Origin: a virus
Taxonomy: Duplodnaviria; Heunggongvirae; Uroviricota; Caudoviricetes
DNA: 41,460 nucleotides
Direction: 5' to 3' (one strand)
IMG/VR virus record: IMGVR_UViG_2579778753_000003
Numbering within the stretch: the stretch's first letter is position 1; each line of letters begins with the position of its first letter. The position numbers and the translations under genes were made by a program. The notes beneath the pieces were generated by a model that searched no databases, had not been told where the DNA came from, and saw only the letters and a list, made by a program, of their open reading frames with translations. Positions 5,118 through 31,181 of the stretch are shown piece after piece.

Positions 5118-7940
5118 ATGACGGCAGAGTACATCAGGGACTGGCAACAACCGCGCCACGCAGTGGGGCGTGAAGGAACGGGGATCCCCGCTCCTGAATC
5201 CGCACTTTCCTCCTGGCTGGATGCCTACCGGGTAGAGAACGAGCGCCGCCAGGAAATGGCTGATGCGGCGTTCTCCGCCACGCCGCTGGGCAACCTGATT
5301 AATAAAAGCCTGGACGCACAGGAAAAACAGGACAAAACCATCACACTGGCAGGAGACGCCAGAAAACAGGCACGCGGCGCAGTGGATGAAGCCATGGCCT
5401 CGCTGCGCCTGCTGCCGTCCTATCTGCGCGATCCGCTTATTCGCCACCTCTCCTTCCTGCGCAAAAAACAGGAAGCCGATCGCCGGAAAGGCAAAAAGAG
5501 CTGGCAGGCGGAACGCTATGCACGCGGAACCCTGCGCAAAATATTCGAACGTCTGGACCGCACCGATCACCGCTGGCTGACACCGGGTTATCGCTCCCTT
5601 GCCGGACGCGAACGCCTGGACGATTTGCTTTACCTGCCGCAGCTCAACAAACACCAGATACAGACGCTGGCCACCATGACGGCGGCGATGTTCAGCAGCA
5701 CCTTCGAAAAACTCTGCGATGGCTTTGGCGCGACCGATGGCGAGCTGACCATGGATGTAACGCTGAAGGCGTATCAGATGCTGGCCCGCATGGCGTTACA
5801 CCTGCACGCCATGCCTCCACATTATGACGCACTGACAACAGACAAAGACCGGAGGAACGAACCAGACACGGAGCTGCTGCCGGGCGCAATCCTTCGCCTG
5901 ACCTGTGCGGAATGGTGGAAACGCAAACTGTGGCTGTTACGTTGCGAGTGGCGGGAAGAACAACTCCGCGCCGCCTGTCTGGTTTCCAGAAAAACATCGC
6001 CCTATCTGAGCCAGGACGCGTTAAGCGAGTTTCGCGCACAGCGCGAGAAAACACGCGATTTCCTGAAAAGTTTCATGCTGGAAAATGAAGACGGGTTCAC
6101 GATTGATCTCGAGACGGTGTATTACGCGGGAGTAAGTAACCCGGTTCACCGTAAGGCAGAAATGATGGCCACCATGAAGGGACTGGAACTTCTGGCCGAA
6201 GCCCGTGGCGACAGAGCGGTGTTTCTGACCGTCACCTGCCCGTCAAAATACCACGCAACAACGGAGAACGGTCATCCGAACCCCAAATGGAACGGGGCCA
6301 CCATGCGCGACTCTAGCGATTACCTGGTTAACACGTTTTTTGCGGCGGTCCGCAAAAAACTGAACCGCGACGGCCTGCGCTGGTATGGCATCCGCACGGT
6401 GGAGCCTCACCATGACGGCGCTGTGCACTGGCATATGATGGTCTTTGCACATCCGGACGAGATTGAAACCATCGTGTCCCACGTCTGCGATATTGCCATT
6501 CAGGAGGACCGCCACGAGCTGGGCGATGACATAACTCCGCGTTTTAAGGCGGAGTATGTCGACGGCTCAAAAGGCACACCAACCAGCTACATCGCCACCT
6601 ACATCGGAAAGAACCTGGACAGCCGCGCCGTGGATGGCATCGACCCGAAAACGGGCAAGCCACGCGTTGACCACGAAACCGGAAAATCAATGGCCGAGAG
6701 CGTGGAGCGCGCCATCGGCTGGGCGCGCCTTCACCGGGTCCGTCAGTTCCAGTTCTTTGGCATCCCCTCCCGTCAGGTGTGGCGTGAACTGCGCCGCCTT
6801 GCCAGCCAGATGGCACGCAATCCGGAAGGCCCGCAACGGCTGAAAGATGATGCAATGGATGCGGTACTCGCTGCCGCCGATGCCGGGTGTTTTGCCACCT
6901 ACATTGAAAAACAGGGTGGCGTGCTTGTTCCACGCAAGGACTACCTGATTCGCACCGCCTACGACCTCGCAGATGAGCTGAACGATTACGGCGAACAGAG
7001 CGTACAGATTTACGGGATCTGGTCACCACTCATCGGGGAATCCTCCCGTGTGTGCACGCATCCGGATAACTGGAAGTTGGTAAGACGTAAACCAGAACCA
7101 GAAGACAACGCCCACGAAAATGGTTTTGACCTTCAGGGCGGCCCTGCCGCCCCTTGGACTCGTGGCAATAACTGTCCCCGTGTACAGGAAACGGACAACA
7201 ACGGGACAGAACAGCCGGAAGAACGGCCAGCACCGTGGCCGCAGCTCCCTGACGGCGTTGAAGTGAACGAATGGATGCGCTCACTGAAACGACACGAACG
7301 CCGGGCGCTGATGCGTTCGCTTCGTGACAAACAGGCAAAAAACAGCAGCGATGAAATGCAGAGCTGGACACAGAGCCGCAAACAGCAGCGGCCTTTGCCT
7401 GATAACCACGAATTACTCGCTAAAGAATGGCGGGAGTCTGCTGAATCTCTCGGCCTGCATATCGGTGAACAACAGATGCAGCACCTGTTACGGGGCGGCA
7501 GTCTGTACGTTGACGGCAGCATCATTGCACCGCAGGGATTTGAAATTGTACGCAAACCGGATACCCGCCCGGACAGCCGAATCACGCAGCTCTGGCAGCG
7601 CCTGAGCCGTAATCACGGCGTAAGCAGCACGGAGATCCGCCATAACCCGGTCTCCAGCTATCTGGCACAGCTCGGGGCATCAGACCCCGAAGCCGCCGCA
7701 CGCCTGGCATCCACACTTCAGCAGGTCCAGAACACCATGAAAACACCCGTTACCGTGCTTTCTGACATGCTGCGCGCCATTCGTGACGCAGAGCACGCAC
7801 AGAGAATCAGAGAAACCACTGAACGCGCCCGCCGCAAAGCAAACCTGCTGAGGGCTGGCCTGACCAGTGGAAACAAAAAACAGACAGAAACGGGATTCAC
7901 AAATCCCGTAAATGAGCAAAAAACGCGCCGCGATATATGA
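5118..7940 (+). CDS. Rolling-circle replication initiator (HUH endonuclease, P2 gpA-like)
   Basis: 940-aa ORF with an HUH-type motif (GAVHWHMMVFAH) and a paired-tyrosine motif (TSYIATYIGKN). It is longer than the 761 aa recalled for P2 gpA. Confidence 0.8.
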   Translation: MTAEYIRDWQQPRHAVGREGTGIPAPESALSSWLDAYRVENERRQEMADAAFSATPLGNLINKSLDAQEKQDKTITLAGDARKQARGAVDEAMASLRLLPSYLRDPLIRHLSFLRKKQEADRRKGKKSWQAERYARGTLRKIFERLDRTDHRWLTPGYRSLAGRERLDDLLYLPQLNKHQIQTLATMTAAMFSSTFEKLCDGFGATDGELTMDVTLKAYQMLARMALHLHAMPPHYDALTTDKDRRNEPDTELLPGAILRLTCAEWWKRKLWLLRCEWREEQLRAACLVSRKTSPYLSQDALSEFRAQREKTRDFLKSFMLENEDGFTIDLETVYYAGVSNPVHRKAEMMATMKGLELLAEARGDRAVFLTVTCPSKYHATTENGHPNPKWNGATMRDSSDYLVNTFFAAVRKKLNRDGLRWYGIRTVEPHHDGAVHWHMMVFAHPDEIETIVSHVCDIAIQEDRHELGDDITPRFKAEYVDGSKGTPTSYIATYIGKNLDSRAVDGIDPKTGKPRVDHETGKSMAESVERAIGWARLHRVRQFQFFGIPSRQVWRELRRLASQMARNPEGPQRLKDDAMDAVLAAADAGCFATYIEKQGGVLVPRKDYLIRTAYDLADELNDYGEQSVQIYGIWSPLIGESSRVCTHPDNWKLVRRKPEPEDNAHENGFDLQGGPAAPWTRGNNCPRVQETDNNGTEQPEERPAPWPQLPDGVEVNEWMRSLKRHERRALMRSLRDKQAKNSSDEMQSWTQSRKQQRPLPDNHELLAKEWRESAESLGLHIGEQQMQHLLRGGSLYVDGSIIAPQGFEIVRKPDTRPDSRITQLWQRLSRNHGVSSTEIRHNPVSSYLAQLGASDPEAAARLASTLQQVQNTMKTPVTVLSDMLRAIRDAEHAQRIRETTERARRKANLLRAGLTSGNKKQTETGFTNPVNEQKTRRDI

Positions 7941-7998
7941 AGCGCGCACAAAACAGGCGAAAGCGGGATTTAAAAATCCCGTAAACGGTTAATTAACC
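7868..7998. repeat. Two ~35-bp imperfect direct repeats, each with a palindromic core; candidate centromere/operator (or origin)
   Basis: cgggattcacaaatcccgtaaa at 7891-7912 (inside the end of the replication gene) and cgggatttaaaaatcccgtaaa at 7964-7985, with similar upstream flanks; ggttaattaacc palindrome at 7987-7998; parM-like start at 8017. Confidence 0.4.
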
Positions 7999-8016
7999 AA
8001 CATAAGGAAAATCGAC

Positions 8017-8976
8017 ATGAAAATTTGTATCGACGACGGCTCCACCAACATCAAGCTGGCATGGACTGAGAATGGCGAACGCCGCAACGCCATCAGCCCG
8101 AACAGCTTCAAGTCGGAATGGTCTGCGCCGTTCGGTGACATGCAGCCCGCGAACTACATGCTTGATGGCGTGCGCTATGGTTTTGATCCGGTCAGCGATC
8201 GCTTTGTCCAGACGACCGACACGCAATACCAGTACAGCGATGTGAATGTAATCGCCATTCATCACGCGCTGGTCAAATCAGGCATCACGCCACAAGAGGT
8301 GGATGTGGTTGTCACCCTGCCACTGAGCGAGTATTTCGAGACAAACGCACAGCCGGACATGGCCAACATCAACCGCAAAAAAGCGAACGTTATGCGCCCG
8401 GTGGAATACCAGAACGGCGAAGCATTCACTATCCGTAACGTGCGGGTTATGCCTGAATCCATTCCGGCTGGCTTTAAAGCACTGGCTGACATGAGTCCGT
8501 TTGAATCCCTGCTGATTGTGGATTTAGGCGGAACCACGCTGGATGTGGCAAAGGTTCAAGGGCAACTGGCAGGTATCAGCCAGGTGTTTTGCGATCCACA
8601 CGTAGGCGTTTCCCTGATGGCCGATGCCGTACTGTCGGTGATGGCCACTAACGGTATGCGCACCAGTCACCACATCGCCAATACCATTATCGAACATCGC
8701 CATGATGAAGCCTGGCTGCGCCAGCACATCCACAATGACGCGCATTACGCCAGCCTGATGGCGGTTATTCGTGAAAAGGAAGAAACACTGAAACAACGCG
8801 TGATCCGCGCGCTGGCGGTTTTTTCGGGTTACGGGCGGGTGATGGTTGTCGGTGGAGGGGCGGAGATTGTGGCACCCGCTATCCGCGAAGTCTGCGGAGT
8901 TAATGCGACTTTCATCGCGGACGGGGTGCCACAGTTTGCTCTGGTTAATGGGCTGTACGCAATGGACAAGGAGTAA
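8017..8976 (+). CDS. parM: Actin-like partition ATPase, ParM/StbA family
   Basis: MKICIDDGSTNIKLAW..., TLPLSEYFETNAQP...RKKANV..., LIVDLGGTTLDVA..., VMVVGGGAE match the recalled ParM/StbA of plasmids R1 and R100. Confidence 0.8.
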   Translation: MKICIDDGSTNIKLAWTENGERRNAISPNSFKSEWSAPFGDMQPANYMLDGVRYGFDPVSDRFVQTTDTQYQYSDVNVIAIHHALVKSGITPQEVDVVVTLPLSEYFETNAQPDMANINRKKANVMRPVEYQNGEAFTIRNVRVMPESIPAGFKALADMSPFESLLIVDLGGTTLDVAKVQGQLAGISQVFCDPHVGVSLMADAVLSVMATNGMRTSHHIANTIIEHRHDEAWLRQHIHNDAHYASLMAVIREKEETLKQRVIRALAVFSGYGRVMVVGGGAEIVAPAIREVCGVNATFIADGVPQFALVNGLYAMDKE

Positions 8977-8980
8977 ACCA

Positions 8981-9295
8981 ATGACGACACCAACCAGACG
9001 GATAAGTTTCTATCTGAAGCCCGCCGCCGTCAAGAGTGAACAGGAGGCGTGCAATTACCTCGATAGCCTGCCAGCCTCCGAACGCAGCCGCGCGCAACGC
9101 GCGGCCTTTCTGGCTGGGCTAGCGCTCATAAAGCGCAACCCAGCATTTGCCTACTGGATGGCCGAATGGCCAGAGGACAACCTCCCCTTCAATACCGTTA
9201 GCATCAAGGAAACATACCAGGATAATCAGCCTAGCGGAGTTGAATGCAATTTTTATAAAATAAAAAAGAATATTCAGACCTTATTCCCAGAATAA
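8981..9295 (+). CDS. parR: ParR/StbB-like partition adaptor
   Basis: 104-aa ORF 5 nt after parM with an AGGAG Shine-Dalgarno; RISFYLKPAAV...LDSLPASERSRAQRAAFLAGLAL resembles StbB. The track ORF from 8846 overlaps parM. Confidence 0.65.
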   Translation: MTTPTRRISFYLKPAAVKSEQEACNYLDSLPASERSRAQRAAFLAGLALIKRNPAFAYWMAEWPEDNLPFNTVSIKETYQDNQPSGVECNFYKIKKNIQTLFPE

Positions 9296-9343
9296 TCTGA
9301 TAATTGTATGTGAACTAATAAAATACAGACCAACACATCATTC

Positions 9344-9368
9344 TGGCACCCTTGCTAACAGGGTGCCA
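9344..9368. terminator. 9-bp stem hairpin between convergent genes (possible bidirectional terminator)
   Basis: tggcaccct-tgctaac-agggtgcca; lacks a clean U-tract on either strand. Confidence 0.3.
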
Positions 9369-9378
9369 ATGTTTCAAA

Positions 9379-10221
9379 TCATGATGAAATTGCCGAAGTT
9401 TTTTTATCGTGCTGAAGTACCGCAAATGCCATTAAAACCTCAAGAGAATAGCGGCGATAATACTTAACAAAACCATAATAAAATACTCGGGATGCAGCAA
9501 TACAAAACAAGAGAAGAAAACAAAAAGGTAACAGTCTGATATTTATATCTATTAAAAAGGATAGAAGGAGCAGGAACATAAGCAACCAGACTGAAGCGAG
9601 AAAAACAAATGTAATGTTTCTACAAAAACCATACAAAGCAACATAGTTTTGCATTTTCACCTGATGATTTTTAGAATGTTCATACACATAATGATAAGCA
9701 AGGCGAAAAAGATCGCCCCTCAAGCCCTTACGTCGATATAGCGTAGATACAGAAAAAACATTTATATAACCATCTCGTATTTGCGGCCAAAAGACTTTAA
9801 TAAGTATAGAATGCAGTGTGGTTTTATGATGTTCTGCTTTATCAAAAGCTGATACAGGAAATAAAAAAACTCCACGAATAAAATTAACTATACTGAACTT
9901 AGTATTATGTCGTTTTATTTTCAGGGAGCTTCTTTTAGAAAACAGATAAATTGAAGGATACCCAAGTTTACTGTTCATGTATTTTTCAATTAAACAGGAT
10001 GATAGAATAGATATGAAGTGACCTGAAATATATGATAGAACGATTAATACCACATATATAAATACACTTATTATTTCTTTATATTTCAGGATATGGTTAA
10101 GAATACCTTCTATATAAACAGGGTTAATTTCAATAGAAAACAAAAAAAGGATAAACAGGAATAACCCACCTGGAATTAGATAGCCCAAAAAGTCATAAAA
10201 TGAAAACGGATTCTGTGTCAC
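9379..10221 (-). CDS. Multi-pass membrane protein, unknown family (cargo gene 2)
   Basis: 280-aa ORF, AT-rich and codon-atypical for the prophage; hydrophobic helices at both termini (LIPGGLFLFILFLF..., FVFLASVWLLMFLLLLSFL...); no recognisable motif. Confidence 0.7.
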   Translation of the reverse strand: MTQNPFSFYDFLGYLIPGGLFLFILFLFSIEINPVYIEGILNHILKYKEIISVFIYVVLIVLSYISGHFISILSSCLIEKYMNSKLGYPSIYLFSKRSSLKIKRHNTKFSIVNFIRGVFLFPVSAFDKAEHHKTTLHSILIKVFWPQIRDGYINVFSVSTLYRRKGLRGDLFRLAYHYVYEHSKNHQVKMQNYVALYGFCRNITFVFLASVWLLMFLLLLSFLIDINIRLLPFCFLLLFCIAASRVFYYGFVKYYRRYSLEVLMAFAVLQHDKKTSAISS

Positions 10222-10260
10222 ACTTCCCCCTGTGTTACTTGTAAATTAAAGGGTAAAACA

Positions 10261-10758
10261 TTATTTGTTTTTCCGTAAAGGATTAGCTTTCCATCTTCTT
10301 ACTAACCATTCGAATTCTTGATATGTAGTATCCGAATTAATGCTTTCTCTGATTGCTTTAATTAATGGCTCGGCAATATCATATGTCTCTACAACTGTTG
10401 TGTAAGATGTTCTTTTTATCATTTTTTCATCATAAATACCTTCACGAATACTTACAGCAACTCGCTCGTAAAAATTTAAAATATATTGAAATTTTCGACG
10501 CTCGGCCATTTCTTCATCTGTTATTATGCAACCATCACAAGGAAAAACATAAGAACGAAATGATTTGCCTGAACGATGCACTTGTTTCAGGGTATGCAAT
10601 GACTCTATATATTGCATATCTTGCCGACTCTCAAAAAGAAAGTTGGCCGTTTGAGTTTTTTTTGCGGTACGCACATTGTAGATAATGGTTCCAATGGCAA
10701 CCAAAACGCCAAGCAGAACAATAGCATTGCTGATGATTTGTAGTGTTATTGGGTTCAT
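10261..10758 (-). CDS. N-terminally membrane-anchored protein, unknown family (cargo gene 1)
   Basis: 165-aa ORF; N-terminal helix LQIISNAIVLLGVLVAIGTIIY followed by a soluble domain; AT-rich; 39 bp upstream of cargo gene 2 on the same strand. Confidence 0.7.
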   Translation of the reverse strand: MNPITLQIISNAIVLLGVLVAIGTIIYNVRTAKKTQTANFLFESRQDMQYIESLHTLKQVHRSGKSFRSYVFPCDGCIITDEEMAERRKFQYILNFYERVAVSIREGIYDEKMIKRTSYTTVVETYDIAEPLIKAIRESINSDTTYQEFEWLVRRWKANPLRKNK

Positions 10759-10777
10759 CCTATTTCATCCATAAAAA

Positions 10778-10800
10778 AGGCGGGGAGCAAATCCCCGCCT
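10778..10800 (-). terminator. Intrinsic-terminator-like hairpin in the 5' leader of the cargo operon (candidate attenuator)
   Basis: aggcgggga-gcaaa-tccccgcct (9-bp GC-rich stem); on the minus strand it is followed by U6; it ends 20 nt before the ATG at 10758. Confidence 0.5.
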
Positions 10801-10819
10801 CATTAGAGGTCAACGTAGC

Positions 10820-10855
10820 TTAGAAACCATCAAATTCATCATACATTTTTTTCAT
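10820..10855 (-). CDS. Candidate 11-codon leader peptide
   Basis: ATGAAAAAAATGTATGATGAATTTGATGGTTTCTAA (MKKMYDEFDGF) with GAGGGGG 5 nt upstream; its stop lies about 19 nt before the terminator hairpin. Confidence 0.25.
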   Translation of the reverse strand: MKKMYDEFDGF

Positions 10856-10955
10856 ATCAACCCCCTCATAGAAATCATAACCACGTTTTGTGGTTTTTGT
10901 GACGTATAAACTACATCAAAGGCAAGCCACGGTCAAATATATAGGCATGCTTACC

Positions 10956-11101
10956 TGCACAAAAGTGCACAAATTTGCACAATTTTTTTGAACGACTTTT
11001 TACCCTTCCGGCCCGCATGGCGGCTGGATCCGTCAAGGATCCGTGCGTGCACAAAAAAACGCGCTTTTTCTGCGCGCAGGTGACGGGGGAACAGCCCGCG
11101 T
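10956..11101. repeat. Iterated TGCACAA motifs and GC-rich block; candidate cos/packaging region
   Basis: tgcac at 10956, 10966 and 10976 (exact 10-bp period) and again at 11047; ggatccgt repeated at 11026 and 11037; tgcgcgcaggtgacgg at 11071 resembles recalled P2 left-end sequence. The exact cohesive end was not located. Confidence 0.3.
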
Positions 11102-11480
11102 TTCAGGGGGTAAATAGCATTCCCTGAACGATGTCGCAGAGACACAACAGAATGGCCATATTTCTCACGCTGAGCATGAAAAAGGCGTGAGGGCTTTTGA
11201 TTTGATGGGGTGAAAGGTAAGGCCGTCAAAATCGCACTGAGGCAGCGAGAACATACAGTCAACGCGGTGGGATTGCGTAAGAGTCTGACCGTCGATGGTG
11301 GCGATAAACTGGAAGGCGTCGTGAAATTATCTGATTGATACAGGAGCTGGAGAGCCGGGGCATAAATTTTTTATGCCCGGCGAAGCAGCAGACAAGCGAA
11401 GCGCGTCAGTGATGCGGCACCTTGCCGACCACACTTCATAAGTGCAAAATACGAGCAAAGAAATCAATGGAGGCTGTTTT

Positions 11481-12005
11481 ATGGTCATTAATTACAAGCA
11501 GTTACGAGAAAAACGAGAGCAGGTAAAGGAAAGTTTTCGCCGCAATGAAGATCTGACCCCGCTTGTACACCTTGCTCAGGGAATTGTAGATGCTTATGAA
11601 ATCTCTCTGGAGCTGCCATCACAGACATGGACTGATAGCGACGGTAATCGCCAGCATTACGTTTCATGCGGACTGGAAACAACTGAAGGGTTTCGCAGAA
11701 TGCCTTTATCTCAGATTCCTGCCGCTACCCCCAAAGCAAGGGGCGGCAATGATGAGCGAAAACTGATTTTCAGCATTGAGACAGTGGTTGACGACACACC
11801 TGGCGAAGTCGCCTTCGTGCATACTCCTCTTTCGATCGCAATGTATAACGATGAAATACAGGTTCGCGTTAATAATAATATCGTGCCACTTAAAGAAGGT
11901 AATTCACCATACACCACCGTTTGTGAAGCCATTCAATATTACGTTCTCTCTGAAATTGATAATCTCAAGCCTGACGGCACCCAGAAAATGGTTCAACTCT
12001 GGTAA
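11481..12005 (+). CDS. Hypothetical cargo protein
   Basis: ATG at 11481 with GGAGG 7 nt upstream (the track ORF starts at 11442 without a Shine-Dalgarno); 174 aa, no recognisable motif; convergent with the portal gene. Confidence 0.55.
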   Translation: MVINYKQLREKREQVKESFRRNEDLTPLVHLAQGIVDAYEISLELPSQTWTDSDGNRQHYVSCGLETTEGFRRMPLSQIPAATPKARGGNDERKLIFSIETVVDDTPGEVAFVHTPLSIAMYNDEIQVRVNNNIVPLKEGNSPYTTVCEAIQYYVLSEIDNLKPDGTQKMVQLW

Positions 12006-23228: not shown

Positions 23229-25331
23229 ATGAGTACCACAACACGAAAATTTAAAACCGTTATCACCGATACGGGTGCAAAAAAATTAGCTCAGGCAGCC
23301 GCGCCAGATGGTAAGCCTGTCCGCCTGACTCATATGGCCGTGGGCGACGGTGGCGGCACGTTGCCCACACCAGACAGTAAGCAGACCCGTCTGGTGCATG
23401 AGGTGTGGCGACACACTGTTAATCGCGTCATCCTGGACGCAACACATCAGAACCGCATTATTGCGGAGCTGGTTATTCCTCCTGAAACGGGCGGATTCTG
23501 GATCCGGGAAATTGGTGTATTTGATGAGCACGGCGATTTAATCGCGGTGGGCAATACTGCCGAAAGTTACAAACCAACCGTTGCCGAAGGGTCCGGACGT
23601 GCGCAAACATTTCGCACCATTCTGACCGTATCCAGCACTGCCACCGTGGCGCTTACCGTGGATAACACCATGGTGATGGCCACAGTGGATTACGTGGATG
23701 ACAAACTGAAAGAGCATGAACAGTCACGACGTCACCCGGATGCCTCGCTGACCGCAAAAGGCTTTGTTCAACTCAGTAGCGCCACTAACAGCGATTCTGA
23801 AACGCTGGCTGCAACGCCGAAAGCGGTTAAGGCCGCGTATGACCTGGCTAACGGAAAATATACCGCTCAGGACGCCACGACGGCACGAAAAGGGATAGTC
23901 CAGCTCAGCAGTGCAACCAACAGCACGTCTGAAACGCTGGCAGCGACACCAAAAGCGGTTAAGGCGGTAATGGATGAAACGAACAAGAAAGCCCCATTAA
24001 ACAGCCCGGCACTGACCGGAACGCCAACAACACCAACTGCACAACAGGGAACGAATAATACCCAAATCGCAAGCACGGCTTTCGTTATGGCCGCGATTGC
24101 CGCACTTGTAGACTCTTCACCTGACGCACTGAACACGCTGAACGAGCTGGCGGCGGCGCTGGGCAACGACCCGAATTTTGCGACCACCATGACTAACGCG
24201 CTTGCGGGTAAGCAACCGAAAGATGCCACCCTGACGGCGCTGGCCGGGCTTGCTACTGCAGCAGACAGGTTTCCGTATTTTACGGGGAATGATGTTGCCA
24301 GTCTGGCAACCCTGACAGAAGTCGGGCGGGATATTCTTGCGAAATCGACCGTTGCCGCTGTTATCGAATACCTCGGTTTACAGGAAACGGTAAATCAGGC
24401 TTCTGGCGCATTACAGAAAAACCAGAACGGCGCAGATATTCCGGGAAAAGATACCTTCACCAAAAATATTGGGGCCTGCCGCGCATATAGCGCATGGCTG
24501 GATATTGGTGGCGATAGTCAGGTCTGGACAACCGCGCAATTTATTTCGTGGCTGGAGAGTCAGGGAGCATTTAACCATCCTTACTGGATGTGCAAAGGCT
24601 CATGGGCTTATGCAAATAATAAGGTCATTACAGATACAGGTTGCGGAAATATTTGTCTTGCAGGTGCTGTGGTGGAAGTTATTGGCACTCGCGGCGCAAT
24701 GACCATACGCGTTACCACGCCGAGCACGTCCAGCGGTGGCGGAATTACTAACGCTCAATTCACTTATATTAATCATGGTGATGCTTACGCTCCTGGCTGG
24801 CGACGAGACTACAACACGAAAAATCAACAACCTGCATTTGCTTTAGGGCAAACAGGAAGCACTGTCGGAAATGATAAAGCTGTTGGCTGGAACTGGAATA
24901 GCGGGGTCTATAACGCAAACATTGGTGGCGCATCGACATTAATCCTCCACTTCAATATGAATACGGGGAGCTGCCCTGCTGTACAGTTCCGCGTGAATTA
25001 CAGGAACGGCGGTATTTTTTATCGTTCAGCGCGTGATGGTTATGGATTTGAGGCTGACTGGTCAGAGTTTTACACCACGACCCGCAAACCCTCTGCGGGA
25101 GATGTTGGTGCATACACGCAGGCAGAATGTAACTCAAGGTTTATTACAGGTATTCGCCTTGGCGGTCTGTCATCTGTTCAGACATGGAATGGTCCCGGCT
25201 GGTCTGACAGGTCAGGTTATGTCGTTACGGGTTCAGTTAACGGAAACCGTGATGAATTAATTGATACAACTCAGGCAAGGCCAATTCAGTATTGCATTAA
25301 TGGGACGTGGTATAACGCGGGGAGTATTTAA
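23229..25331 (+). CDS. H: Tail fibre protein (gpH-like), constant N-terminus fused to variable C-terminal cassette 1
   Basis: 700 aa with SSATNS.SETLAATPKAVKA repeats; a recombination site at 24361-24386 lies in-frame (encoding [10 protein letters not shown]). Confidence 0.85.
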   Translation: MSTTTRKFKTVITDTGAKKLAQAAAPDGKPVRLTHMAVGDGGGTLPTPDSKQTRLVHEVWRHTVNRVILDATHQNRIIAELVIPPETGGFWIREIGVFDEHGDLIAVGNTAESYKPTVAEGSGRAQTFRTILTVSSTATVALTVDNTMVMATVDYVDDKLKEHEQSRRHPDASLTAKGFVQLSSATNSDSETLAATPKAVKAAYDLANGKYTAQDATTARKGIVQLSSATNSTSETLAATPKAVKAVMDETNKKAPLNSPALTGTPTTPTAQQGTNNTQIASTAFVMAAIAALVDSSPDALNTLNELAAALGNDPNFATTMTNALAGKQPKDATLTALAGLATAADRFPYFTGNDVASLATLTEVGRDILAKSTVAAVIEYLGLQETVNQASGALQKNQNGADIPGKDTFTKNIGACRAYSAWLDIGGDSQVWTTAQFISWLESQGAFNHPYWMCKGSWAYANNKVITDTGCGNICLAGAVVEVIGTRGAMTIRVTTPSTSSGGGITNAQFTYINHGDAYAPGWRRDYNTKNQQPAFALGQTGSTVGNDKAVGWNWNSGVYNANIGGASTLILHFNMNTGSCPAVQFRVNYRNGGIFYRSARDGYGFEADWSEFYTTTRKPSAGDVGAYTQAECNSRFITGIRLGGLSSVQTWNGPGWSDRSGYVVTGSVNGNRDELIDTTQARPIQYCINGTWYNAGSI
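24361..24386. other. Invertase crossover site gixL-like
   Basis: ttatcgaatacc-tc-ggtttacaggaa, matching the recalled Gin/Cin/Pin site (ttatccaaaacc-tc-ggtttacaggaa). Confidence 0.7.
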
Positions 25332-25333
25332 CG

Positions 25334-25867
25334 ATGATGCACTTAAAAAACATTACTGCTGGCAACCCTAAAACAAAAGAGCAATACCAGCTAACGAAAC
25401 AATTTAACATCAAATGGCTTTATTCAGAGAATGGAAAAAACTGGTATGAGGAACAAAAGAATTTCCAGCCAGACACTTTGAAAATGGTCTATGACCATAA
25501 CGGCGTTATTATTTGTATTGAAAAGGATGTTTCAGCAATTAATCCGGAAGGCGCAAGCGTCGTTGAATTACCTGATATTACAGCAAATCGCCGTGCTGAC
25601 ATTTCGGGTAAATGGATGTTCAAAGATGGCGTAGTGGTAAAGCGAACTTATACCGAGGAAGAGCAGAGGCAGCAGGCGGAAAATGAAAAGCAAAGCCTGC
25701 TACAGCTCGTTAGGGATAAAACCCAGCTATGGGACTCACAGCTACGGCTGGGCATCATTTCCGACGAGAATAAACAAAAATTAACCGAGTGGATGCTCTA
25801 TGCGCAGAAAGTCGAATCTACAGACACCTCCAGCCTGCCAGTAACATTTCCCGAACAACCTGAATGA
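25334..25867 (+). CDS. G: Tail fibre assembly protein (gpG-like), partner of cassette 1
   Basis: 177 aa immediately after the tail fibre gene. Confidence 0.85.
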   Translation: MMHLKNITAGNPKTKEQYQLTKQFNIKWLYSENGKNWYEEQKNFQPDTLKMVYDHNGVIICIEKDVSAINPEGASVVELPDITANRRADISGKWMFKDGVVVKRTYTEEEQRQQAENEKQSLLQLVRDKTQLWDSQLRLGIISDENKQKLTEWMLYAQKVESTDTSSLPVTFPEQPE

Positions 25868-25895
25868 GACAAGGCCCGATAGCGGGCCTTAATTT

Positions 25896-26423
25896 TTATT
25901 CAGGCTTTTGTGGCCATTCAGGATTTGCCGTATCCACACGGCTGACCAGAACACTGTAGCGTTCCCATGCTTCCAGTCGTGTGCGTTCCTCGTCTGTTGC
26001 CATATTCAGCCTGACAGCGCGTTCCAGCGGCTGGATGACTGATTCAGCTTCGGAAAGCAATGCGGCCTTTTGTGATTCGGCTTGTTGTTGCTGTTCGTCT
26101 GCCGTATAAATCCGTTTAACTACAGCTCCATCCTTAAACATCCACTTTCCTGAATCATCAGCGCGGCGGTTGGCTGTAATATCTGGAACCTCAACGACGC
26201 TAAAACCTTCAGGGTTAAGCGTGGAGGCATCTTTAGTGATGGCGACAATAATATTATTTGCATCGTAAACAATCTTTATTGTGTCTGGCTGAAAGTTTTT
26301 CACTTCCTCATACCAGTTTTTTCCGTCCTCAGAGTAAAGCCAGATAACTCCGTGTTTCTTTGTTAACTCATACTGTTCCAGTGTTTTAGCGTTACCCGCT
26401 TTTATGTTCTTTAAGTGCATCAT
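25896..26423 (-). CDS. Alternative tail fibre assembly protein, partner of cassette 2
   Basis: 175 aa, about 50% identical to the gpG-like protein (MMHLKNI.AGN.KT.EQY.LTK...), inverted orientation. Confidence 0.8.
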
Positions 26424-26424
26424 A

Positions 26425-27449
26425 TTAAACGCTCGCTACATTATACCAGGTGCCATTTATATACTTTTGAACGGGTCTGTAATAAACGCCCGCTATATTA
26501 TCGGCAGAGTTGGACCCTGTATCCTGAACATTAATACCAGACAATACATGACCTGACGGGCACTGGAAATTCCATGTTTGCCAGTTGTTCACTCTATAAT
26601 ATTGCTGTGAACCAAGTCGAACATCTTTCACATATCTGGAATCAAAATTGCCATAGTTGCCGGGAATAACTTGCGCACCGCAAAGCCAGTTTCCGTTATT
26701 ATCCATGTACGCCTGACCATCGGTGCCATTGGCTGTCCTTGAATTATTAATCATGTAGATGCCAAATTGCTTATTTCCCAGACCGCCAATCATAAATTTG
26801 CGGTCGGCATGGTCCTGACGGAGCAAAGCCTGAGCACCATCAGTGGATACCGCATTACGTCCCATAATAACGTTCTGGTCACGCATATGAATCCACATGC
26901 CTGTACTGCTGTTAATTAAAAAACGGTTTGCAAATATATCTCCTGTAACATCCAGACCATGCCCCATAGTTATGCGACCAGTTCTGAGATTAAGCGTAAA
27001 GGGGCGTAGTGGCCCTATATCGCCATTTTCCCCCTCATTTTCTCGGGTAGGGATGATATGAAGACATTCTTCAGAACGGCGAAAAATAGCACCAAAAGAT
27101 GAATTAAATATCCTCAGTGCATTGACTGTCGATATTTTTACTTCACTGCTGAAAAGGGCTTTAACAAGAACAGACAAAGCATCCCATTTAAGATTCATCA
27201 GGTCTTTTGTTGTGGTGCTTTGTTTGCTTCTCCATTTGAAATATTCATTGCCGTTGTCGCCTGTTTCAAACCACATGTATGAATCAGTATCGCTGTCGGC
27301 ATCATTTTTAAAACCAATCTTTGCCCAGTCAGTATTCCGAATCCAGGCAAGGATTGAGTCGTTTTCAAAAGTAAGCCCACCGGACAAGATATCGCCTGTC
27401 TTTTGGACGGCGTTACCAGCCTTGTTTACCGTTTCCTGTAAACCGAGGT
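26425..27449 (-). CDS. Alternative tail fibre C-terminal cassette 2 (promoterless in this orientation)
   Basis: Frame is open from the centre through ...[30 protein letters not shown]...; no ATG start; would fuse to the constant tail-fibre N-terminus after inversion. Confidence 0.7.
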
Positions 27450-27450
27450 A

Positions 27451-28475
27451 ACCTCGGTTTACAGGAAACGGTAAACAAGGCTGGTAACGCCGTCCAAAAG
27501 ACAGGCGATATCTTGTCCGGTGGGCTTACTTTTGAAAACGACTCAATCCTTGCCTGGATTCGGAATACTGACTGGGCAAAGATTGGTTTTAAAAATGATG
27601 CCGACAGCGATACTGATTCATACATGTGGTTTGAAACAGGCGACAACGGCAATGAATATTTCAAATGGAGAAGCAAACAAAGCACCACAACAAAAGACCT
27701 GATGAATCTTAAATGGGATGCTTTGTCTGTTCTTGTTAAAGCCCTTTTCAGCAGTGAAGTAAAAATATCGACAGTCAATGCACTGAGGATATTTAATTCA
27801 TCTTTTGGTGCTATTTTTCGCCGTTCTGAAGAATGTCTTCATATCATCCCTACCCGAGAAAATGAGGGGGAAAATGGCGATATAGGGCCACTACGCCCCT
27901 TTACGCTTAATCTCAGAACTGGTCGCATAACTATGGGGCATGGTCTGGATGTTACAGGAGATATATTTGCAAACCGTTTTTTAATTAACAGCAGTACAGG
28001 CATGTGGATTCATATGCGTGACCAGAACGTTATTATGGGACGTAATGCGGTATCCACTGATGGTGCTCAGGCTTTGCTCCGTCAGGACCATGCCGACCGC
28101 AAATTTATGATTGGCGGTCTGGGAAATAAGCAATTTGGCATCTACATGATTAATAATTCAAGGACAGCCAATGGCACCGATGGTCAGGCGTACATGGATA
28201 ATAACGGAAACTGGCTTTGCGGTGCGCAAGTTATTCCCGGCAACTATGGCAATTTTGATTCCAGATATGTGAAAGATGTTCGACTTGGTTCACAGCAATA
28301 TTATAGAGTGAACAACTGGCAAACATGGAATTTCCAGTGCCCGTCAGGTCATGTATTGTCTGGTATTAATGTTCAGGATACAGGGTCCAACTCTGCCGAT
28401 AATATAGCGGGCGTTTATTACAGACCCGTTCAAAAGTATATAAATGGCACCTGGTATAATGTAGCGAGCGTTTAA
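27451..28475 (+). CDS. Duplicate (mirror) copy of cassette 2
   Basis: Identical translation to 26425-27387 on the opposite strand. Confidence 0.65.
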
Positions 28476-28476
28476 T

Positions 28477-29004
28477 ATGATGCACTTAAAGAACATAAAA
28501 GCGGGTAACGCTAAAACACTGGAACAGTATGAGTTAACAAAGAAACACGGAGTTATCTGGCTTTACTCTGAGGACGGAAAAAACTGGTATGAGGAAGTGA
28601 AAAACTTTCAGCCAGACACAATAAAGATTGTTTACGATGCAAATAATATTATTGTCGCCATCACTAAAGATGCCTCCACGCTTAACCCTGAAGGTTTTAG
28701 CGTCGTTGAGGTTCCAGATATTACAGCCAACCGCCGCGCTGATGATTCAGGAAAGTGGATGTTTAAGGATGGAGCTGTAGTTAAACGGATTTATACGGCA
28801 GACGAACAGCAACAACAAGCCGAATCACAAAAGGCCGCATTGCTTTCCGAAGCTGAATCAGTCATCCAGCCGCTGGAACGCGCTGTCAGGCTGAATATGG
28901 CAACAGACGAGGAACGCACACGACTGGAAGCATGGGAACGCTACAGTGTTCTGGTCAGCCGTGTGGATACGGCAAATCCTGAATGGCCACAAAAGCCTGA
29001 ATAA
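28477..29004 (+). CDS. Duplicate (mirror) copy of the alternative tail fibre assembly gene
   Basis: Identical translation to 25896-26423 on the opposite strand. Confidence 0.7.
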
Positions 29005-29032
29005 AAATTAAGGCCCGCTATCGGGCCTTGTC

Positions 29033-29566
29033 TCATTCAGGTTGTTCGGGAAATGTTACTGGCAGGCTGGAGGTGTCTGTAGATTCGACTTTCTGCGCAT
29101 AGAGCATCCACTCGGTTAATTTTTGTTTATTCTCGTCGGAAATGATGCCCAGCCGTAGCTGTGAGTCCCATAGCTGGGTTTTATCCCTAACGAGCTGTAG
29201 CAGGCTTTGCTTTTCATTTTCCGCCTGCTGCCTCTGCTCTTCCTCGGTATAAGTTCGCTTTACCACTACGCCATCTTTGAACATCCATTTACCCGAAATG
29301 TCAGCACGGCGATTTGCTGTAATATCAGGTAATTCAACGACGCTTGCGCCTTCCGGATTAATTGCTGAAACATCCTTTTCAATACAAATAATAACGCCGT
29401 TATGGTCATAGACCATTTTCAAAGTGTCTGGCTGGAAATTCTTTTGTTCCTCATACCAGTTTTTTCCATTCTCTGAATAAAGCCATTTGATGTTAAATTG
29501 TTTCGTTAGCTGGTATTGCTCTTTTGTTTTAGGGTTGCCAGCAGTAATGTTTTTTAAGTGCATCAT
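29033..29566 (-). CDS. Duplicate (mirror) copy of the gpG-like tail fibre assembly gene
   Basis: Identical translation to 25334-25867 on the opposite strand. Confidence 0.7.
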   Translation of the reverse strand: MMHLKNITAGNPKTKEQYQLTKQFNIKWLYSENGKNWYEEQKNFQPDTLKMVYDHNGVIICIEKDVSAINPEGASVVELPDITANRRADISGKWMFKDGVVVKRTYTEEEQRQQAENEKQSLLQLVRDKTQLWDSQLRLGIISDENKQKLTEWMLYAQKVESTDTSSLPVTFPEQPE

Positions 29567-29568
29567 CG

Positions 29569-30508
29569 TTAAATACTCCCCGCGTTATACCACGTCCCAT
29601 TAATGCAATACTGAATTGGCCTTGCCTGAGTTGTATCAATTAATTCATCACGGTTTCCGTTAACTGAACCCGTAACGACATAACCTGACCTGTCAGACCA
29701 GCCGGGACCATTCCATGTCTGAACAGATGACAGACCGCCAAGGCGAATACCTGTAATAAACCTTGAGTTACATTCTGCCTGCGTGTATGCACCAACATCT
29801 CCCGCAGAGGGTTTGCGGGTCGTGGTGTAAAACTCTGACCAGTCAGCCTCAAATCCATAACCATCACGCGCTGAACGATAAAAAATACCGCCGTTCCTGT
29901 AATTCACGCGGAACTGTACAGCAGGGCAGCTCCCCGTATTCATATTGAAGTGGAGGATTAATGTCGATGCGCCACCAATGTTTGCGTTATAGACCCCGCT
30001 ATTCCAGTTCCAGCCAACAGCTTTATCATTTCCGACAGTGCTTCCTGTTTGCCCTAAAGCAAATGCAGGTTGTTGATTTTTCGTGTTGTAGTCTCGTCGC
30101 CAGCCAGGAGCGTAAGCATCACCATGATTAATATAAGTGAATTGAGCGTTAGTAATTCCGCCACCGCTGGACGTGCTCGGCGTGGTAACGCGTATGGTCA
30201 TTGCGCCGCGAGTGCCAATAACTTCCACCACAGCACCTGCAAGACAAATATTTCCGCAACCTGTATCTGTAATGACCTTATTATTTGCATAAGCCCATGA
30301 GCCTTTGCACATCCAGTAAGGATGGTTAAATGCTCCCTGACTCTCCAGCCACGAAATAAATTGCGCGGTTGTCCAGACCTGACTATCGCCACCAATATCC
30401 AGCCATGCGCTATATGCGCGGCAGGCCCCAATATTTTTGGTGAAGGTATCTTTTCCCGGAATATCTGCGCCGTTCTGGTTTTTCTGTAATGCGCCAGAAG
30501 CCTGATTT
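29569..30508 (-). CDS. Duplicate (mirror) copy of cassette 1 (promoterless)
   Basis: Translation identical to the tail-fibre C-terminus; frame is open up to the gixR-like site. Confidence 0.65.
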
Positions 30509-30513
30509 ACCGT

Positions 30514-30539
30514 TTCCTGTAAACCGAGGTTTTAGATAA
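30514..30539. other. Invertase crossover site gixR-like
   Basis: ttcctgtaaacc-ga-ggttttagataa; mirror of the left site with two outer-arm mismatches; 37 bp upstream of the invertase gene. Confidence 0.7.
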
Positions 30540-30575: not shown

Positions 30576-31181
30576 TTGGACGGGAGATTCAGCGTGCTGA
30601 TTGGCTATGTAAGGGTATCAACAAATGACCAGAATACAGACCTGCAACGAAACGCTCTTGTTTGTGCAGGATGTGAACAAATATTTGAAGATAAATTAAG
30701 CGGGACAAAGACAGACCGACCGGGATTAAAACGCGCTTTAAAGCGCCTTCAAAAAGGTGACACGCTGGTTGTCTGGAAACTGGATCGCCTCGGGCGAAGC
30801 ATGAAACATCTGATTTCTCTCGTCGGGGAACTACGGGAGCGAGGAATTAATTTTCGCAGTCTGACCGACAGCATAGATACATCTTCTCCAATGGGGCGTT
30901 TTTTCTTCCACGTGATGGGTGCCCTGGCTGAAATGGAACGTGAATTAATTGTTGAACGTACACTGGCCGGACTGGCGGCAGCACGCGCACGGGGGCGCAC
31001 AGGCGGACGTCGACCGAAGCTGACAAAAGAACAGCATGAGCAAATAGCAAGGCTGATCAAAAACGGGCACGACAGAAAACAACTGGCAATAATTTACGGC
31101 ATTGGTATATCGACGATTTATCGTTACCACCCCGCAGGAGAATCAATCGGAACAATAGAGAAGAGTCAGGAAACAAAATAA
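30576..31181 (+). CDS. Serine DNA invertase (Gin/Cin/Pin/Hin family)
   Basis: LIGYVRVSTNDQNTDLQRNAL...DTLVVWKLDRLGRSMKHLI... with a C-terminal helix-turn-helix (GISTIYRY); an alternative GTG start at 30594 gives the canonical N-terminus. Confidence 0.9.
   Translation: MDGRFSVLIGYVRVSTNDQNTDLQRNALVCAGCEQIFEDKLSGTKTDRPGLKRALKRLQKGDTLVVWKLDRLGRSMKHLISLVGELRERGINFRSLTDSIDTSSPMGRFFFHVMGALAEMERELIVERTLAGLAAARARGRTGGRRPKLTKEQHEQIARLIKNGHDRKQLAIIYGIGISTIYRYHPAGESIGTIEKSQETK

Follow-up and report, generated by a model that had tools for sequence, protein, structure and literature searches.

A ParM-ParR gene pair and two conserved upstream palindromes in P88-like prophages of Escherichia coli

Results

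The virus record IMGVR_UViG_2579778753_000003, a stretch of 41,460 nucleotides (nt) that was analyzed whole and is called the window below, is a P88-like (Xuanwuvirus, Peduoviridae) P2-type E. coli prophage at pdxB. Downstream of its replication gene gpA lie two genes, parM and parR, and two palindromic repeats precede them; this putative partition cassette is the subject of our analysis. The nearest complete genome is 99.9% identical over the query, and there the prophage is inserted next to pdxB with the gene order integrase, C-like repressor, Cox, small early genes, gpA of 940 amino acids (aa) and ParM, followed by a partitioning/stability family protein, two hypothetical genes, and the portal, terminase, capsid and tail genes. 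With an integrase, Cox, gpA, portal and terminase in place and pdxB adjoining in the nearest genome, the host element is a P2-like integrated prophage, as an earlier note on this DNA had described it.

The parM gene (8017-8976, + strand) is predicted to encode a 319-aa actin-fold, filament-forming ATPase. Its product is covered over its full length by Pfam StbA_N (PF06406, expectation value (E) 2.9e-82) and the ParM C-terminal domain (PF21523, E 1.1e-68), matches PHROG 691 'partition protein', and is matched by the structures of R1 ParM (1mwk and others) at E 4e-93. In the alignment, the segments IDDGSTNIKL, VMPESIPAG, DLGGTTLD and GGGAE are identical between the window ParM and R1 ParM, the phosphate-binding and adenosine motifs are the same in both proteins, and identity to an IncF plasmid ParM is 47%. 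A ribosome-binding site, AAGGA (8004-8008, + strand), lies 8 nt ahead of the parM ATG, and the ATAAGGA leader before parM is common with R1-type parM (...CCATAAGGAGTTTTATAAATG). The parR (stbB) gene (8981-9295, + strand) begins with an ATG at 8981, 4 nt past the parM stop codon and with GGAG 7 nt upstream, and encodes a putative adaptor protein of 104 aa. This protein is matched by Pfam Plasmid_stab_B (PF10784, ParR/StbB; E 7.7e-29) and PHROG 2515 'partition protein' (1e-54), and the pB171 ParR structure 2jd3 aligns weakly with its residues 6-57 (E 0.012). PGAP names the two products 'plasmid segregation protein ParM' and 'plasmid partitioning/stability family protein'. Both proteins were thus matched when they were searched against the ParM and ParR families, and the naming of the pair as ParM/StbA and ParR/StbB in the earlier note stands.

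Two palindromic sites upstream of parM

A repeat search found 39-nt direct repeats at 7874-7912 and 7947-7985, which are 82% identical and lie 73 nt apart from start to start. The core of the distal repeat, CGGGATTCACAAATCCCG (7891-7908), falls within the end of gpA, whose stop codon is at 7938-7940, and is candidate ParR site 1 of a parC; the core of the proximal repeat, CGGGATTTAAAAATCCCG (7964-7981), lies 53 nt upstream of the parM ATG and is candidate ParR site 2 (parC/operator). Both cores are 18-bp palindromes. Direct repeats with palindromic cores, the first of them inside the end of the replication gene, had been reported before at about 35 bp; the repeats and their placement are real, whereas the unit is 39 nt long. 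The pattern CGGGATT-N4-AATCCCG, which has 14 specified bases, occurs without mismatch at only these two places in the 41,460 bases, and the repeats are therefore not a product of chance. The looser pattern YGGG-N10-CCCR has 3 matches in the window, and the upstream repeats supply the one pair spaced by 70-76 nt. The repeats are the obvious candidate for the cis site of the ParM/ParR pair, as had been supposed.

Essentially every locus of the E. coli clade has both palindromes, which vary mostly at the four inner positions or at single outer ones. A YGGG-N10-CCCR pair with a spacing of 72-73 nt also lies at a similar distance from the parM ATG in three genera: E. coli (distal site at -126, proximal site at -53), Hafnia (-129 and -56) and Plesiomonas (-132 and -60). 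Each of these loci has one pair so spaced among 2-3 pattern matches per 9-41 kb, and GGG-N10-CCC stands at equal distance from parM in P88, Hafnia and Plesiomonas. The site pair persists across genera at only 62% ParM identity, while the flanks are not conserved. The distal site keeps its distance to parM although the E. coli gpA tail, in which it is located, and that of Plesiomonas are unrelated, and in Hafnia it falls in a separate 167-aa open reading frame (ORF), not in gpA. What is kept across genera is the GGG and CCC triplets and their spacing; the inner sequence and the hairpin potential vary. Because inner-stem complementarity is not conserved, a DNA site read by a symmetric protein is favored over an RNA hairpin. 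The octamer TTAATTAA (7989-7996, + strand) reads TTAATyAA across genera in the invariant columns of a four-lineage alignment and is possibly a weak -10 element or a further contact; in E. coli, Hafnia and Plesiomonas, TTAATyAA and the ATAAGGA leader follow the proximal site. In the Serratia/Enterobacter clade, the upstream element consists of a long inverted repeat, CGGGAACGAnATAGAAAAAT-N27-ATTTTTCTnTTTCnTnCCC, together with a GnCGTTTAAACGGC palindrome. The arms of this inverted repeat are about 20 nt and its spacer varies from 26 to 28 nt (locus L093, 5880-5970; equivalents in L094, L098 and L099), and ParR of this clade differs in the DNA-binding region (NRKISFYLKP).

Conserved and variable parts of ParR

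We compared 37 ParR homologues. The N-terminal strand RRISFYLKP (R6-P14) is invariant across them, residues 1-63 are well conserved, and residues 64-92 form a hypervariable linker. Despite this linker, the tail motif [KR]xNIxxxFP is kept in all 37 homologues, with N97, I98, F102 and P103 invariant. The tail codons of the window parR (9263-9292, + strand) encode KKNIQTLFPE, which aligns with the R1 ParR tail ...TKKNAMKLIN. The C-terminal part of R1 ParR is said, from work by Gayathri et al. in 2012, to bind ParM. An AlphaFold model of the ParR monomer, with a mean predicted local distance difference test score (pLDDT) of 66, has helices at residues 20-29, 32-52 and 54-61, a disordered stretch at 62-89, and a helix at 90-101. 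The N-terminal helix pair of the model is consistent with a ribbon-helix-helix fold; the strand is not formed in the monomer model. A Foldseek search of the model against PDB returned nothing meaningful, so that the ribbon-helix-helix assignment comes from the Pfam match and the weak sequence match to 2jd3.

Polymorphism is much greater in parR than in parM: at the 80% level, the E. coli clade has at least 9 parR alleles. Comparison with P88 places a recombination breakpoint in parR at 9035-9036 (about codon 18): near-identity to P88 DNA ends at about 9035, and beyond it protein identity is 52%. The variable hotspot that separates gpA from the portal gene thus has its left recombination boundary inside parR, and its variable cargo begins after or within parR. 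The polymorphic stretch corresponds to window positions 9035-9262, codons ~18-94. The parR allele showed no correlation with the 4-nt inner spacer of the proximal site, as would be expected if the invariant ParR strand reads the outer triplets.

The replication gene and its origin

The gpA gene (5118-7940, + strand) encodes a replication endonuclease of 940 aa that matches Pfam Phage_GPA (E 1.5e-128) and PHROG 91 'nicking at origin of replication' and is 30% identical to P2 gpA. Past about residue 700, the protein is unrelated to its Plesiomonas homologue: the ~240 residues from ~700 to 940 (window 7220-7940) have no counterpart in the Plesiomonas gpA of 789 aa, and the alignment with P2 gpA (761 aa) stops near residue 800. 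The length of 940 aa reflects a clade-specific C-terminal extension, and P88 gpA is equally long, so that the protein, which had been thought unusually long, is of normal size for its clade. The nick of the P2 origin is annotated inside gene A (NC_001895:29892). Its counterpart in the window lies at 7146-7175 (+ strand), where GCCGCCCCTTGGACTCGTGGCAATAACTGT is identical to the P2 sequence GCCGCGCCTCGGAGTCCTGTCAATAACTGT at 25 of 30 positions, and the gpA protein alignment puts the two at a matching position. Since this counterpart is inside gpA, about 750 nt upstream of the repeats, the repeats (7874-7985) are not the replication origin that the earlier note had considered.

The gap between gpA and parM is 76 nt and the two genes have the same orientation. 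A promoter and terminator scan of this interval found no + strand terminator and no consensus sigma-70 promoter, and inspection by hand found only a weak -10-like TTAATT. The proximity of gpA, with neither a terminator nor a good promoter in between, suggests that parM and parR are probably expressed with the early replication genes.

Distribution and age of the cassette

The cassette stretch is 96-99% identical in P88, 520873 and P884B11 (Xuanwuvirus), in Citrobacter phage phiSM, and in others. Measured over 1.7 kb, it was found in 1,358 of 5,426 complete E. coli genomes (25%), at 1,516 places, 1,514 of which are chromosomal. Rousset et al. 2022 (PMC9122126), whose survey covered the gpA-gpQ locus in P2-like prophages of E. 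coli, state that about a quarter of these phages carry a putative partition system. A partition pair had been called unexpected in such an element; it is in fact common, belongs to known Xuanwuvirus phages, and is named by both PGAP and PHROGs. The presence of parM and parR in these prophages is thus already annotated and published and as a sequence finding is ordinary; our analysis adds to this, in a small way, the conserved two-palindrome site and the modular build of ParR.

Some records labelled otherwise than as E. coli chromosomes also hold the locus. NZ_CP148288.1, a circular E. coli 'plasmid' of 34,461 bp in PLSDB, is a complete P88-like genome with the integrase, Cox, gpA, ParM/ParR and all structural genes. 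NZ_MK439959.1, the 228-kb conjugative IncC KPC plasmid pC-Ec2-KPC, contains a prophage piece of more than 20 kb between IS26 copies, with early genes, gpA, parMR, the same DUF4760 cargo as in the window, and head and baseplate genes. NZ_JBQPOM010000071.1, a 226-kb contig labelled Vagococcus sp. (a Firmicute), has a ParM locus of 97% identity, most likely through contamination or mislabelling of the assembly.

Relatives of ParM were collected by a search of 5.8 billion proteins, together with contig look-ups. The E. coli group is 91-98% identical to the window ParM, Hafnia and Plesiomonas 62%, Serratia 57-59% and Enterobacter 53-54%, and the bulk of the relatives are at 51% or below. Scans for close relatives of the E. 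coli ParM returned only copies at least 97% identical, and a search with the Hafnia ParM in IMG/VR gave no match. All relatives of 53-62% identity that were looked up are in P2-like prophages, with ParM-ParR between gpA and the portal gene, and a 92%-identical E. coli variant has the same order, gpA-ParM-ParR-portal. The sampled contexts at 47-50% identity (n=3) were a plasmid, an integrated plasmid, and an integrative and conjugative element (ICE), the last two with relatives at 48-50% identity. In a neighbor-joining tree, made without bootstrap, the prophage ParMs group together, apart from the plasmid and ICE ParMs.

The GC content at third codon positions (GC3) of parM follows that of gpA in each lineage: 0.644 and 0.645 in E. 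coli, 0.589 and 0.580 in Hafnia, 0.472 and 0.490 in Plesiomonas, and 0.702 and 0.673 in Serratia, for parM and gpA respectively. The GC3 of IncF parM is 0.355. Among 110 distinct loci of the E. coli clade, parM is intact in 108 and parR in 106, and the mean ratio of nonsynonymous to synonymous substitution rates (dN/dS) is 0.077 for parM and ~0.30 for parR. Because synteny is kept in five genera, the phage ParMs group together, and the GC3 of parM tracks that of gpA, the sequences indicate that the cassette is an old resident of the P88-like lineage, not a recent pick-up.

Neighboring features

A hairpin, GGCACCC-N9-GGGTGCC (9345-9367), lies between parR and the convergent cargo gene; it is a candidate terminator, although it was not scored by the terminator scan. 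The cargo genes of the gpA-portal hotspot at 9379-10221 and 10261-10758 (both - strand) have GC contents of 0.32 and 0.35, against ~0.55 for the phage backbone. The first encodes a 280-aa protein that appears from its sequence to be a multi-pass membrane protein, and it matches PHROG 12528 and, weakly, Csx27 in PADLOC (1e-5); the other protein is a DUF4760 member (Pfam E 1.8e-34). The low-GC pair is likely accessory or defense-type cargo, and the full cargo region is present in 226 complete E. coli genomes. An ORF of 174 aa (11481-12005, + strand) that separates the cargo from the portal gene matches PHROG 5091 and has no Pfam match. In the nearest genome, the gap between cargo and portal is ~610 nt shorter and has no annotated gene, so that this part of the hotspot varies as well.

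Elsewhere in the window there is a perfect inverted repeat with arms at 24361-27449 and 27451-30539, each of 3,089 nt, 100% complementary and separated by 1 nt. It spans the 3' part of the tail-fiber gene, tail-fiber assembly genes and alternative fiber segments. A crossover-like site of ~50 nt is found at its center (27450-27499) and at its outer end (30482-30531), where a gene for an invertase-type recombinase (30576-31181) adjoins it; the nearest genome has a single copy of the segment. The structure is either an inverted duplication made by the invertase or an assembly artifact of an invertible segment present in mixed orientation.

Discussion

We consider it probable that parM, parR and the two upstream sites are a complete and functional type II (ParMRC, actin-type) segregation cassette, a long-standing module of P88-like phages that most likely acts on the free phage circle. 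ParR dimers would bind both 18-bp inverted repeats, YGGG-N10-CCCR, through the RRISFYLKP strand of an N-terminal ribbon-helix-helix, and the two repeats upstream of parM together with ParR would make up a small partition complex. Because the repeats are 73 bp apart, about seven helical turns, the two sites would be on the same face of the DNA. The conserved ParR tail KKNIxxxFPE would then capture the ends of ATP-ParM filaments, and filament growth between two ParR-DNA complexes would push sister circles apart. The substrate would be the free circular genome, either after infection and before integration, or after excision while gpA-driven replication makes monomeric circles. The free circle is the most likely substrate because copies of the cassette are almost always chromosomal, an integrase is present, and there is no plasmid-type replication control. 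The stage of the life cycle that benefits may be the establishment of lysogeny or lytic replication. More narrowly, and only tentatively, we suggest that the cassette serves the actin-based positioning or segregation of the free phage circle on a minimal centromere of two operators, not plasmid maintenance.

Several points weigh against this proposal. No consensus sigma-70 promoter was scored upstream of parM, which leaves the timing of expression to guesswork. Since lysis by P2-type phages comes within one generation, it is not obvious why DNA would have to be segregated to daughter cells during the lytic cycle. The ParR model is only moderately confident (pLDDT 66) and its fold search was without result. 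The candidate centromere is much smaller than R1 parC and unlike it, and may be only an operator. The upstream element of the Serratia/Enterobacter clade is built differently, so that the site model is not general for all phage-borne copies. Finally, a search of the literature found no experiment testing the function of the cassette.

Among the alternative readings, a moron recently captured from a plasmid, which the earlier note had offered as one explanation, or a decaying relic without a role in the phage, is already contradicted by the data, and we give these readings hardly any credence. It is true that the ParM and ParR families are otherwise typical of IncF and other plasmids, that 1,754 plasmid records hold a ParR relative, and that the protein database includes clusters of truncated ParM (P0006, P0009 and P0017). 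However, the nearest plasmid ParM is just 47-51% identical, parM matches gpA in GC3 in four lineages and has a value of 0.644 here, compared with 0.355 in IncF parM, and the gpA-portal position is shared by phage ParMs at 53-62% identity, which group together and keep their synteny across five genera; a relic is further contradicted by the dN/dS of parM and by the 108 of 110 distinct copies that are intact. It is also very improbable that the repeats, instead of being a centromere, mark the replication origin, serve as a signal related to gpA, or form an RNA structure, such as a terminator or attenuator, in the gpA-parM interval. The distal repeat does lie within gpA, a weak terminator-like hairpin was scored on the minus strand at 7909-7890, and the RNA of the repeat region folds more stably than shuffled controls (z -3.7), but this stability arises only because the two palindromes can pair, and such pairing is not conserved in other genera. 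The nick-site counterpart is elsewhere, at 7146-7175; the stems vary across genera and only GGG and CCC at a fixed spacing are kept; neither + strand hairpin is followed by a T-run; the distal site stays at a set distance from parM but not from gpA, the tail of which is different or has another ORF in its place; and an Rfam scan of 7000-11500 gave no credible match.

A facultative plasmid prophage, in which the cassette lets P2-like phages persist as low-copy plasmids in lysogens, would correspond to the canonical role of ParMRC, is suggested in passing in a passage of Rousset et al. 2022 (PMC9122126), and has in its favor the one circular PLSDB record (NZ_CP148288.1), which is a whole phage with its integrase. 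We think it unlikely, because only two of the 1,516 places found in the 5,426 complete E. coli genomes are not on a chromosome and the lone circular record may be an excised replicating form picked up by the assembler, the other plasmid records being an IS26-bracketed IncC fragment, a linear IS1-ridden contig and very large records. The integrase, Cox and att site are retained, insertion is next to pdxB, and the sole replication gene seen is a P2-type gpA; no plasmid-type replication control gene was seen, leaving the nicking system of the lytic cycle as the only replicon. The earlier suggestion that the cassette stabilizes an episomal state therefore survives only for a transient state, a stable plasmid being unlikely. 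If these phages do also live as plasmids, this would change counts of P2-like prophages and the view of how defense cargo spreads. A role of the pair within the hotspot other than partition, namely exclusion, defense or competition (by titrating or mis-segregating an element with the same sites), or a ParR that is a mere transcription regulator, seems quite improbable to us. Such a role would be in line with the place of the cassette at the edge of the P2 tin/old hotspot, where defense systems accumulate, and with the many parR alleles and the breakpoint at codon 18. But neither protein is matched in PADLOC; ParM, unlike the cargo usual in hotspots, varies little and is strongly constrained by purifying selection; and the cassette is kept across genera while the neighboring cargo changes (DUF4760, DUF3800, HicAB, KAP NTPase). 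Moreover, the polymorphism of ParR falls in its linker and spares the DNA-binding strand and the tail.

The interest of the locus is that 25% of complete E. coli genomes carry the cassette in an integrated prophage that should not need plasmid partition, and why an integrating phage lineage has kept actin-type segregation for so long is a moderately interesting question. If the cassette is a two-operator machine for the free circle, about a quarter of the P2-like prophages of E. coli would be a Gram-negative counterpart of AlpAC of the CGP3 prophage, and the sites would be a natural example of how few ParR sites ParMRC needs. In that case, this compact variant of ParMRC, with two sites and a ParR of 104 aa, could also be a tool for the study of minimal centromeres. 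If it acts on the transient circle, the transport of viral DNA by actin-like filaments would extend from one actinobacterial prophage to enterobacterial phages of a very common group.

Comparison with known systems

The cassette shares with the ParMRC systems of R1 and IncF plasmids the order parC-parM-parR (parC being here a candidate), repeats upstream of parM, the ATAAGGA leader, and a ParM that is 47% identical with all ATP-binding motifs kept; the ParRs are 36% identical in the N-terminal domain and their C-terminal KKNxxxL tails align. It differs in being on an integrating P2-type phage and not on a plasmid. R1 parC is made of 2 x 5 direct, A/C-rich 11-bp iterons around a strong TTGACA promoter, whereas the window has two 18-bp palindromes 73 bp apart and a parM without a clear promoter of its own. 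The window ParR has 104 aa with a hypervariable linker, against 116-117 aa in R1/IncF, and the GC3 of parM is 0.64 against 0.36. The ParR of pB171 (2jd3) is the sole solved structure with detectable similarity to the window ParR, and the aligned part is the ribbon-helix-helix region for DNA binding and dimerization; the match is weak (E 0.012), and there is no relation in the site sequences or in the remainder of the protein.

The temperate phages P1 (ParAB) and N15 (SopAB) have plasmid-type segregation systems and are maintained as plasmids in lysogens. TubZR of Clostridium phage c-st is likewise a segregation system of a phage-plasmid (PMC4446434). The window phage has plasmid-type segregation in common with all three; unlike them, it has an integrase, and 1,514 of its cassette's 1,516 places are chromosomal. 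In P2, the variable locus flanked by replication gene A and portal gene Q, which holds orf91, tin and old (PMC9122126), occupies the same position, but parMR is a conserved inner flank here, not variable cargo, and it is without a PADLOC match.

A parallel in proposed function is the CGP3 prophage of Corynebacterium glutamicum. There, AlpA, the adaptor of the actin-like AlpC, binds repeats upstream of its own operon, and AlpC and AlpA are induced early and are needed for efficient replication and a normal copy number of the excised circle (PMC4446434). The likeness is a functional analogy only and not family membership: the actin-like family and the host phylum are different, and the adaptor gene comes first in alpAC, whereas the motor gene comes first here. 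Both systems, AlpC/AlpA/alpS and ParMR with its two palindromes, combine an integrated prophage with an actin-like filament protein and a DNA-binding adaptor that has its sites, or in our case its candidate sites, upstream (PMC4446434, PMC5539076), and for both the proposed action is on excised circular phage DNA during replication, not on plasmid inheritance.

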